IMG/VR virus record: IMGVR_UViG_2703718860_000028
Span: 1-15,775 of that record
DNA from: a virus
Lineage: Duplodnaviria > Heunggongvirae > Uroviricota > Caudoviricetes
DNA: 15,775 nt
Direction: 5' to 3' (one strand)
The position numbers were made by a program. This document shows positions 12,001 through 15,000 of the stretch, piece by piece (the first letter of the stretch is position 1; the number at the start of each line of letters is the position of its first letter).

Positions 12001-15000
12001 GAAACACTCTCCACGATTACTTACAAGCAGATCCCCGTTATCACTACCGAACTTTTGGCGCACCTTTACGGCACAGAAGCTATTCGTATTCGCCAGAATC
12101 ACCACGAAAACAAAGGTCGTTTCATTGAGGAAAAACACTTCTTCAAACTTGAAGGTGAAACTTTACGTGAGTTCAAGCACAGAGTAGCTTTTAACTACTC
12201 TGTGAAAATCGCCCGTAACGTTCGCTCCCTCATCCTCTGGACAGAACGCGGCGCTGCCCGTCACGCAAAAATGCTCGAAACCGATCGGGCGTGGGAGGTG
12301 TTCGAAAAACTGGAAGACTGCTATTTCAGCCAGAAAATTCCAGAACAACTTCAGCTTCCAGAATCAACGCTGTCTATCAACTACCCTCTCTCGTGGTTTT
12401 CTGAGCATCACCCATACTCCATGATGAGCTATGTTGATCGAAAAACTCTTAACCTGGACGTTTCTGTGCTCTTCGATATGCCAAGCCCAACTATGCGCAT
12501 CCTCAACGAGCTACACAGCAAGGGCTATAACGTCGATGCAGCTGTCGCCGAATTTAACGCCTTCAAGCATCTGACGGAAGAAATGCGCCGCACGCTACAG
12601 GATATTTCAAGACTGTCAGATCGAAATTCCCGAAAAGGCTTCTCGTTAAGCCTGTAACTTCCCCTACCATCCCCGACATCCCGTCGGGGTTTTCATATCT
12701 GGAGACAAAAATTTGAAACAGATCGCTTTCTACAGGCGTTCTGGAAGGCCCGGTGCCTTCCGTGGGTTAAAAGAACGCGTCACCTGGATGATTCAGTCTC
12801 GTGGTCGTCCTGTTACTGGCAGTGAAATAGCAGAGAAATTTGGTGTTTCACTTTGCGAGTTCAACAAGGTAGCTCGCGGCCTGACAAAGGGCAGTAAGGT
12901 TGTGAAAATAAAGGCTTCAGAACCATTCACCACAGACACCGGAATCGTTGATCGCTTTTTCTCCCTCGAATCAAATCCTCGTCGTGACACACCTCGCTCA
13001 CGCAATGCCGTTCCTCCATTCAGTCGCAGAAGCCGTGAACACGCAGCAAAAAACTGTCGCGAGGAATACGTGCAAAAGGCCGAACGCCGTCGCCGACTGA
13101 TTAAAGCAGGACTTTACATTGATGAGTTTGAAAACGCGCTATGACGAAAAAATACACCCTCATTTACGCAGATCCCCCCTGGACATTCCGCGACAAAGCA
13201 ACCGATGGTCAACGCGGTGCAAGTTTTAAATATCCGGTCATGAGTCTTCTGGATATCTGCCGCCTCCCGGTATGGGAACTGGCAGCCGAGAATTGCCTGT
13301 TGGCTATGTGGTGGGTGCCTACACAACCACTTGAAGCATTGAAGGTTGTAGAAGCGTGGGGCTTTCGTCTGGTGACGATGAAAGGATTAACCTGGAACAA
13401 ATGCGGGAAAAGACAGACCGACAAGCTGGTCATGGGTATGGGTAGCACCACTCGCGCTAACAGCGAAGACTGCCTTTTTGCAGTGAAAGGAAATCTGCCT
13501 GAACGCATTAACGCCGGAATAATTCAGTCATTTACTGCACCACGCCTTGATCACTCCCGCAAGCCGGATATGGCGCGAGAAAAACTTGTGCAACTTCTTG
13601 GCGATGTTCCCCGGATAGAACTGTTCGCCCGCCACACCTCGCATGGATTTGATGTATGGGGTAACCAATGCGGAACACCATCCATTGAGATGGTTCCGGG
13701 TATTGTTAAATTTCTGGAGAAAACCAATGAGCGAAAAAACGACGTTGACAAAGGCATCACCAGTTGAATTAAGGCAGTGTCTGGAAATCGCAAATCAACT
13801 TGCCAGAAGTGGAATACGCTTTGTTCCAATCCCGATCACAGCAGATGCAGAACTTCATCTGTTTGGTGAAATTCTTTCCCGAAAGCTGGATGAACTGGAA
13901 AAGCTGGTAGAAGAAGCTGACACCTCACCAATCGCATAACACCCCCACCGACATTAAAATATCAGGAGAAAAAAATGAACGCCGTACTCACAGAATTGAA
14001 CAAATTAGGAAAAGCAACAGCCGACAGCATTTCTAAAGGTCTCAATATTGATTTGAATGACGTCATTGATACGCTGTGGAAGTTGAAAAACCAGGGGATC
14101 GTAAAGGTAAAAAACGGCATCTGGCAGGCAGTAGAGGGAGTTGGAAGCAAAACAGATATTGATTCAGTTCAACCAGTTCAACCAGTTCAACCAGTTCAGC
14201 CAGTTCAGCCAGTTCAGCACAACATTATAGGTGACCTGCTACGTAAATCACGGAAAGAAGCGCGCCGCGCCGGGCGGAAACAGAAACGATGGGAGGGTGC
14301 ATGTAAGGCGTTGCAAGAACTGAATAAATACCGTGACTTGATCAACGAATTGTCAGAGTGAACGTAGCGGGAATCCACGTCCTTTAGGGCGTGGATGATA
14401 TCAGGCTGTTGAAATACATGTAGAAAAGGAGCGCATACTATGGAAGTCAACTTAATGACCGAAAAAGAGGTTTCTGATTTGTTACAAAAAAGGCGCACAG
14501 CTTTGTATAATTTGCGAAAAAAACACGGATTCCCGGAACCAGTACTTACTCATCCGGCGCGATATAGTCGTCAGGCCGTTGAACAATGGCTTAAAGCCGG
14601 AGGAATTAACCGAGCTGTTTAGCGTGCCAGAAAATTTTATCAGCATACAACTCATACGCATCTTTCTGTTCCGACAACCAGTCGTGTTTATTATACACGG
14701 CCATAACTCCCCCAAGTTCATGCCCCAGCATTTTTTCAGTGACGTGGGGCATAATTCCTTCCCCAGATAAATTCGTTACCAGAGAACGCCTAAAATCATG
14801 CGTTCTCCATTCAGGAATATCAATTTTCTCCCTTAACTTTTTCATGTACAAATTAGCCGACGAACGATCAATAGGTTTATCTATTTCCTGCCCGGGGAAT
14901 AGCACATCAAAACCCGCATTAAGCAATCTCTCGATATAAGGTTTAACCTGAGTGAATACCGGACGCCGGATAATATTCCCCATTTTTGAATGCTCTTTTG

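Follow-up and report, generated by a model that had tools for sequence, protein, structure and literature searches.

The gp6-gp5 methyltransferase pair of a short-tailed Stx2a-converting phage, its identity with the phiPA8 system, and the modification genes that accompany relatives of its partner protein

The genes under study, gp6 and gp5, code for an arginine-rich protein of 143 amino acids (aa), PNB-2, and for an MT-A70 adenine methyltransferase (MTase). They are located in a DNA of 15,775 nucleotides (nt) from a virus of the Caudoviricetes (IMG/VR record IMGVR_UViG_2703718860_000028, positions 1 to 15,775), and this whole stretch is called the window hereafter. Exactly this pair was studied in the phage phiPA8 by Gong, Chakraborty, and Koudelka (Nucleic Acids Research 2023; PMC10810198), and the system was reported as the first prophage-encoded ribosomal RNA (rRNA) methyltransferase. 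In phiPA2, gp5 is disrupted by IS629, and both amoeba killing and spontaneous induction are below those of phiPA8; a plasmid carrying gp5 rescues the defect, whereas a version with DPPW changed to APPA fails to do so (PMC10810198). The purified MTase alone consumed S-adenosylmethionine (SAM) at near-background levels on RNA and on DNA, including DNA of dam- as well as dam-/dcm- strains (PMC10810198). His-tagged PNB-2 pulls down the MTase, cross-linking produces a 1:1 species, and strong, substrate-selective SAM consumption was found for the complex only (PMC10810198). With nucleic acids from the phiPA2 lysogen, the complex showed >13.5-fold higher activity on total RNA than on total DNA. It preferred 16S over 23S rRNA and 30S subunits over free rRNA, and its activity on phiPA8-lysogen RNA was far lower (PMC10810198).

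The active enzyme was associated with raised spontaneous prophage induction and with killing that depends on Shiga toxin (Stx; PMC10810198; 10.1101/2023.09.20.558713). In the preprint (10.1101/2023.09.20.558713), deletion of PNB-2 or disruption of the MTase alone resulted in intermediate induction, and the double deletion nearly abolished it. Extracts without the enzyme translated less and were more sensitive to Stx, and nanopore direct RNA sequencing nominated the 16S rRNA positions 832, 1098/1100, 1132, and 1190. According to these publications, the system tunes the spontaneous induction of Stx phages and thereby the virulence of Stx-producing Escherichia coli.

The locus in the window is, with near certainty, the gp6-gp5 operon segment of a short-tailed Stx2a-converting phage, identical to the published two-subunit system. 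Its 1.35-kb region matches 191 phage records with at least 90% identity, nearly all of them Stx1a- or Stx2a-converting (best match 99.2%). The window as a whole is covered over 92% of its length, at 97.7% identity, by short-tailed Stx2a phages of the Sepvirinae including phiPA8 and phiPA2, and phiPA8 aligns colinearly with positions 9833-15775 at 99.2% nt identity. At the protein level, gp6 is identical to phiPA8 AKI86171 (PNB-2) in 143 of 143 residues and gp7 to AKI86172 (PNB-1) in 225 of 225, and gp5 shares 207 of its 208 residues with AKI86170, the single change being E50D. The gene order gp7-terminator-gp6-gp5-DUF1382, the terminator sequence, and the position adjacent to the integrase gene (int) are the same as in phiPA8 (PMC10810198; 10.1101/2023.09.20.558713). 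The only difference is the conservative E50D in the MTase, and the window thus carries the same system in another isolate.

The gene pair is therefore known and constitutes no new entity, as essentially identical proteins were characterised in 2023; a preliminary description of this DNA had treated it as uncharacterised. The same description proposed that the upstream basic protein may be a specificity or regulatory subunit, and this agrees with the published complex and its selectivity, which were obtained with proteins 100% and 99.5% identical to those of the window. The features of the locus are as follows; the TTG start, the Shine-Dalgarno, the stop/start overlap, and the DPPW codons were read from the sequence.

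11980..12657, plus strand: gp7, or PNB-1, ORF6N antirepressor-like (Pfam ORF6N, E=1e-19; PHROG 1760, anti-repressor); given as context, outside the holoenzyme
12671..12697, plus strand: intrinsic terminator in the gp7/gp6 gap, CCCCGAC-ATCCC-GTCGGGG followed by TTTTCATA; 7 pairs, 6 of them G-C, and a T tail (terminator scan)
12701..12704, plus strand: Shine-Dalgarno GGAG of gp6, 8 nt 5' of the TTG
12713..13144, plus strand: gp6, coding for PNB-2 (EcoPA8orf6775P), arginine-rich, 143 aa; predicted winged helix-turn-helix (HTH) core at about residues 19-85 and predicted long basic C-terminal helix at about residues 105-131
13141..13144, plus strand: ATGA stop/start overlap of gp6 and gp5
13141..13767, plus strand: gp5, coding for M.EcoPA8orf6770P (M.ECPA8_3172P), the MT-A70 catalytic subunit, 208 aa; PF05063 at residues 5-176
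13171..13182, plus strand: codons GAT CCC CCC TGG for DPPW, residues 11-14 of gp5
13727..13939, plus strand: DUF1382 gene of the same operon (Pfam DUF1382, E=3.6e-28), with GGAG 7 nt upstream

The product of gp5 matches the full length of Pfam PF05063 (profile positions 1-172 of 172; E=1.3e-22; score 81 bits, cut-off 23.9), so the MT-A70 enzyme with a DPPW motif that had been described for this locus is confirmed. PF05063 is the sole Pfam match, and the classical Dam families PF02086 (D12) and PF05869 (phage Dam) are unmatched. The protein is also recognised by PADLOC as MTase_II (8.8e-86) and by PHROG 359, 'DNA methyltransferase'. Among solved structures, chains of the ciliate MTA1 (7F4R, 7F4L, 7YI8, and 8XYL; E=1.9e-12 to 1e-11) come nearest in sequence, and the DPPW of gp5 aligns with that of MTA1 in the PDB sequence alignment; METTL3 is a far weaker match (E about 1e-4). 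Since the MT-A70 domain fills residues 5-176 of 208, gp5 has no separate target-recognition domain (TRD) and is, as judged from its sequence, a minimal MT-A70 catalytic core. For the 99.5%-identical protein, consumption of SAM has been published, and adenine-N6 methylation from SAM is the putative activity of the copy in the window.

PNB-2 is strongly basic, with 21 arginines and 11 lysines against 16 aspartates and glutamates and an isoelectric point of 10.75; the arginine-rich 143-aa open reading frame (ORF), the stop of which overlaps the MTase start, was thus correctly described. That this ORF is a real gene is evident from its conservation in 65 protein clusters, from its place in PHROG 1680, and from the purification of the identical protein (PMC10810198). 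The homologues, all from prophages of Enterobacteriaceae, are conserved over their full length down to about 50% identity. No Pfam domain above threshold and nothing in NCBIfam offers a named family for PNB-2, its match to HTH_11 being sub-threshold; a weak HTH_11 match is found in 11 of 16 members of the family. In the family alignment, the N-terminus is basic and conserved, a winged HTH is probable, and the C-terminal helix is basic and ends in LYIDEFE; there is no conserved Cys4. The single-chain AlphaFold2 model, of low confidence (mean predicted local distance difference test score of 57.9), has a winged-HTH topology followed by a long helix. In a Foldseek search of this model against the PDB, generic winged-helix regulators alone were found, none of them at E<=0.001. 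These observations are suggestive of a winged-HTH fold. Apparent fusions of PNB-2 with MT-A70 were considered as a Rosetta-stone argument and dropped, since the hybrids P0048-P0052, like the longer PHROG 359 profile, have the look of recombinants or of wrongly called ORFs.

In the case of translation, gp6 begins with TTG behind its GGAG, and the ATG of gp5 (13141-13143) overlaps the TGA of gp6 (13142-13144). Most neighbouring genes have a Shine-Dalgarno, but none precedes the ATG of gp5 (gtttgaaaacgcgctATG). As gp5 lacks this signal and has its start within the ATGA at the end of gp6, translational coupling of the two genes is plausible. The overlap by itself is weak evidence for the co-translation that had been suggested: among the 23 same-strand junctions of the window, three are ATGA and four more overlap by 1-8 nt or 41 nt, and because such overlaps are ordinary in this operon, the ATGA was rejected as proof of a partnership. 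All nine distinct loci of the Stx clade surveyed (see below) keep the ATGA overlap of the pair. Under this arrangement, gp6 would be initiated at TTG with a good Shine-Dalgarno after the intrinsic terminator, and gp5 would be made via coupling to gp6, with the two proteins in roughly equal amounts.

Regarding transcription, the terminator hairpin occupies 12671-12689, with the T tail after it, and a hairpin of identical sequence was quoted as stopping T7 read-through from gp7, which is not co-expressed with gp6 and gp5 (PMC10810198). A stationary-phase promoter for gp6-gp5 was reported there as a personal communication. In a consensus scan 3' of the terminator this promoter was not located, and no sigma-70-like promoter was detected between the terminator and the gp6 start, a gap of just 23 nt. 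This implies that the reported promoter is located 5' of gp7 or inside it, the terminator then being read through, or else is not sigma-70-like. In the region 12560-13200 around the start of gp6, two weak inverted repeats were found besides the terminator, and no operator-like repeat.

The genes accompanying PNB-2 homologues were surveyed in 101 loci: 18 taken from genomes, 80 that ranked best among 482 viral hits, and 3 added by look-up; each survey scan was restricted to its best 80 hits. Dereplication removed only loci with exactly the same protein sequence, ORF starts were set to the longest possible, and modification genes were called by a Pfam or PHROG match of the cluster representative and spread to the members by BLASTP. 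This resulted in 82 distinct combinations of PNB-2 and downstream gene, with 81 loci having downstream sequence. A recognisable DNA-modification gene is located within three ORFs 3' of the PNB-2 homologue in 76 of these 81 loci. In the Stx clade, consisting of nine combinations, the next gene is MT-A70 in all nine. The other clade (68 combinations) is about 54% identical to the PNB-2 of the window and at least 80% identical within itself. There, the next gene is an MT-A70 that overlaps in 34 cases and follows a spacer in 3. The alternative next genes of this clade are PF05869 phage Dam, PF02086 D12 Dam, PF01555 N6_N4, PF14072 DndB-like, PAPS reductase, tgt/DpdA-like (PHROG 887), and MTases of PHROG 757 and 954. 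A PF00145 C5 methylase is often the second gene of the cassette, for instance after MT-A70.

Near-identical PNB-2 homologues (95-99%) precede different enzyme families. An example is the pair of loci L056 and L066, the homologues of which are 99.3% identical and are followed by MT-A70 and a PF05869 Dam, respectively; likewise, those of L013 (Dam) and L015 (N6_N4) are 98.6% identical. The exchange point of the cassettes is the junction just 3' of the PNB-2 stop. Upstream of the homologues, at least five gene families are found, mostly recombination exonucleases with an ATGA overlap. These varied upstream genes indicate that the constant association of PNB-2 is with the downstream modification cassette and not with the upstream backbone.

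Within the spacer of 146-161 nt is either of two conserved mini-ORFs, each about 50 aa long and ATGA-coupled at both ends. These belong to PHROG 1998 (MTHAHDDIRVG...) and PHROG 11492 (MKAWSLEELALLW...), and they are present in L012, L013, L015, L017, and L019 (about 3426-3575) and in L050, L054, L057, and L060 (about 3426-3590). An ORF of 52 aa similar to PHROG 1998 also precedes stand-alone MT-A70 genes without PNB-2. In the non-Stx MT-A70 genes that overlap the PNB-2 stop, DPAW stands in place of the catalytic DPPW at 31 of the 34 distinct loci (L007, L049, L058-L063, and others; about 3426-4082), and all six non-Stx copies located after a mini-ORF or another gene carry DPPW.

The MTase family is the larger of the two, with at least 1248 clusters (E<=1e-10) versus 65 for PNB-2. 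Some O157 prophages have an intact MTase of 208 aa and a replaced PNB-2. In the EC4115 type (L104, E. coli O157:H7, NC_011353.1 3293143-3294829), the loss of PNB-2 ends 30 nt 5' of the MTase ATG. Two further loci, L106 and L118, have a hybrid ORF of 67-76 aa that keeps the last 10 residues of PNB-2 (LYIDEFENAL) and the ATGA coupling. L104, L106, and L118 are natural variants of an 'MTase without PNB-2'.

Overall, the published two-subunit PNB-2/M.EcoPA8orf6770P methyltransferase is very probably the right description of this locus, and equally high confidence is given to a physical two-subunit enzyme. For 16S rRNA as the main physiological substrate, confidence is lower and only somewhat above even. 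In such an enzyme PNB-2 and gp5 form a 1:1 complex, as published. The arginine-rich, winged-helix PNB-2 would supply a nucleic-acid-binding surface to the TRD-less core, as we infer from the precedent of the ciliate enzyme MTA1c, and the complex would methylate adenines, reportedly those of 16S rRNA in 30S subunits, leading to more spontaneous induction and toxin. The preliminary description had expected an anti-restriction or epigenetic DNA methylase; the published work describes instead a preference for 16S rRNA and 30S subunits and a phenotype of higher spontaneous induction and Stx-dependent killing, although a DNA role may exist beside them.

Several points weigh against the published enzyme as a full account of the locus. 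The substrate was assigned by a coupled colorimetric assay of SAM consumption, with no modified nucleotide identified chemically, and the DNA offered to the holoenzyme came from a dam+ strain, where GATC is already methylated, dam- DNA having been given to the MTase alone (PMC10810198). The nanopore comparison was between lysogen and non-lysogen, with no isogenic MTase mutant (10.1101/2023.09.20.558713). The near-identical M.EcoGV, over-expressed without PNB-2, methylates GATC in vivo according to the citing passages of PMC10810198 and PMC6602927. PNB-2 homologues do not co-vary with the downstream enzyme, and 69 of the 80 closest viral MT-A70 loci are without PNB-2, the 11 that have it being of the Stx type. 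In these 69 loci, on P22-like or lambdoid contigs of about 40 kb, the MTases are 78-84% identical, and the ORF upstream is PerC-like (the label PF06069 comes from a fused gene call, P0075), a 52-aa mini-ORF, or another small ORF. Similarly, among 5,426 complete E. coli genomes a near-full MTase is found in 208 and PNB-2 in 137, about a third of the MTase carriers being without PNB-2. Finally, PNB-2 appears to have some MTase-independent role, since the single deletions are partial in effect and the double deletion is worse.

With these points in mind, the enzyme could be primarily a phage DNA adenine methyltransferase of the GATC type, like M.EcoGV, with PNB-2 as a DNA-binding winged-HTH protein that leads modification cassettes and with an rRNA preference that is secondary or belongs to the in vitro assay. 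We consider this rather unlikely. It would account for the DNA-modification genes of many families downstream of PNB-2 in 76 of 81 loci, for the 95-99% identical homologues that precede different families, and for the C5 DNA methylase that often follows MT-A70. It is also consistent with the ciliate DNA N6-methyladenine MTase MTA1 outranking METTL3 as a sequence match, with the GATC specificity under which M.EcoGV is listed in the sources as cited, and with the use of dam+ DNA only in the published holoenzyme assays. Nevertheless, the MTase alone remained at background on dam- and dam-/dcm- DNA, and the complex, besides its >13.5-fold higher activity on RNA, tells apart the RNA of strains with and without the enzyme. 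Moreover, the same phages carry a separate Dam (M.EcoVT2Dam), and the survey, with its best 80 hits per scan, reveals association and not mechanism. The DNA and the rRNA reading are compatible and not mutually exclusive. In a broader proposal, which we regard as possible but short of an even chance, PNB-2 (PHROG 1680) is a generic phage-DNA-binding adaptor or regulator for the unrelated enzymes of a swappable cassette. The main substrate of the Stx enzyme might then be DNA (GATC), with rRNA methylation as a side activity, or the Stx clade might have recently re-purposed the module for ribosomes.

Another way to explain the conservation of PNB-2 whichever enzyme follows is that it mainly regulates the downstream modification cassette, or else other genes of phage or host, at the level of transcription or translation, and is not a true subunit. 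This is improbable: PNB-2 co-purifies and cross-links 1:1 with the MTase, and it alters the activity and substrate preference of the purified enzyme in vitro, where control of expression cannot act. The predicted winged-HTH core would suit a regulator, and NCBI records do label the homologues 'regulator', with no experimental basis stated. The ATGA-coupled mini-ORF of about 50 aa that separates PNB-2 from the enzyme in non-Stx phages also points in this direction, as do the intermediate effects of PNB-2 deletion and of MTase disruption next to the more severe double deletion. On the other hand, a conserved Cys4 zinc finger as in Com is lacking, and upstream of gp6 there is the terminator only, with no operator-like repeat. 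It could even be argued that the adjacency is synteny only, with PNB-2 as part of the backbone where this borders a recombination hot spot and with the ATGA as ordinary packing, given that ATGA and other short overlaps are common in the operon, that cassettes swap just after the PNB-2 stop, and that EC4115-type prophages retain an intact MTase after the loss of PNB-2. We hold this to be very improbable in view of the physical complex and the activity published for identical proteins, and the enrichment of 76 in 81 downstream is hard to explain in this manner when at least five gene families are found upstream. The published two-subunit enzyme therefore stays the preferred description. What is added here is a testable doubt: relatives of PNB-2 travel with many unrelated DNA-modification enzymes, and relatives of the MT-A70 enzyme mostly without PNB-2. 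Depending on whether the substrate is RNA or DNA, either Stx phages rewire ribosomes by methylation or a conventional DNA-modification module has an unusual accessory protein.

The window represents an early-left arm running into int, with Rha, ORF6N, RecT, YqaJ exonuclease, DUF2303, PAPS-reductase-like, and Ead/Ea22 genes. The start of DUF1382 is located 41 nt inside the 3' end of gp5, and the same start is annotated in phiPA8 and in RefSeq. It is followed by a DUF1627-like winged-helix ORF, a small HTH_17 ORF, and a convergent tyrosine integrase. No nuclease, restriction, or restriction endonuclease domain was detected in the neighbouring ORFs by Pfam, NCBIfam, PHROGs, or PADLOC, so that the pair does not qualify as a type II restriction-modification system and the term 'orphan' given to the MTase is fair. 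For the same reason, a restriction partner or a defence-system context was rejected.

Within ORF 13975-14361, positions 14165-14216 hold a 9-nt tandem repeat, CAGTTCAAC, in 5.8 copies with 97% matches, which encodes (PVQ)n. The repeat belongs to the DUF1627-like winged-helix protein, and the homologous ORF of other Stx phages has 117-138 aa, a length range that suggests copy-number variation of the repeat.

The ORF at 6632-7510 (292 aa) has a PAPS-reductase match in its N-terminal part only (PF01507, E=2.3e-8, residues 5-72) and is ATGA-coupled to ORF 7507-7710. It may provide a second nucleic-acid-modification function in the same operon, as PAPS-reductase-like genes are also found in the cassette after PNB-2 homologues (L055).

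This one early operon holds two ORF6N antirepressor-like paralogues, at 905-1579 and 11980-12657, and a stretch of 392 nt is about 92% identical between the first and gp7/PNB-1. In addition, the 3' 283 nt of the Rha-family regulator gene (1-648) are about 90% identical to the 3' end of gp7. These shared stretches point to modular C-terminal domains.

Two minus-strand ORFs lie between the KilA-like region and gp7; in the record of phiPA8, a HigA antitoxin and hypothetical proteins are annotated on this strand. The one at 11398-11838 (146 aa) has a ParD/ribbon-helix-helix antitoxin-like domain (PF03693, E=4.9e-7, residues 67-112), and no toxin partner was identified for it. The other, at 11072-11353 (93 aa), has a hydrophobic N-terminus and a cysteine and is a putative lipoprotein.

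Among known systems, Com-Mom of phage Mu and the C-proteins of restriction-modification systems also have a small basic nucleic-acid-binding protein encoded 5' of a DNA-modification gene and overlapping it. Com is a zinc-finger translational activator and the C-proteins are classical HTH autoregulators; neither is known as a stoichiometric enzyme subunit. PNB-2 differs from Com in having no conserved Cys4.

P22-like and lambdoid prophages in Enterobacterales carry stand-alone MT-A70 'adenine methylases'. With 60-89% identity to gp5, these enzymes share with it the early-left position and an ATGA coupling to the gene upstream. However, they have about 195-216 aa and another C-terminal tail, and they are without PNB-2, often following a PerC-family ORF or a 52-aa mini-ORF.

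M.EcoGV of E. coli O104:H4 C227-11 (REBASE) is highly similar to the phiPA8 MTase and is located on a Stx2 prophage, according to the relevant passages of PMC10810198 and PMC6602927; the same pair, about 99% identical in nt sequence, is present in phage records of the O104 type. It differs in its GATC DNA specificity, assigned after over-expression without PNB-2 (Fang et al. 2012, as quoted second-hand in those passages). M.EcoGIX, also considered as the identity of the enzyme, was wrong, as it is a plasmid-borne, single-strand-specific MTase.

METTL3-METTL14 was cited by the phiPA8 authors as the closest structural relative (PMC10810198), and it has in common the MT-A70 fold, the DPPW, and an obligate heterodimer. 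Nevertheless, it is a writer of N6-methyladenosine in mRNA, and its partner is a paralogous pseudo-MTase and not a winged-helix protein. The ciliate MTA1c/AMT1 (PDB 7F4L-7F4T; PMC9174199) differs in being eukaryotic, in having four subunits, among them the inactive MT-A70 paralogue MTA9, and in having ApT in DNA as its substrate, and its p1 and p2 are not homologous to PNB-2. Similarly to gp5, however, it has a TRD-less MT-A70 core, one that needs the homeobox-like HTH proteins p1 and p2 for the binding of both DNA and SAM.

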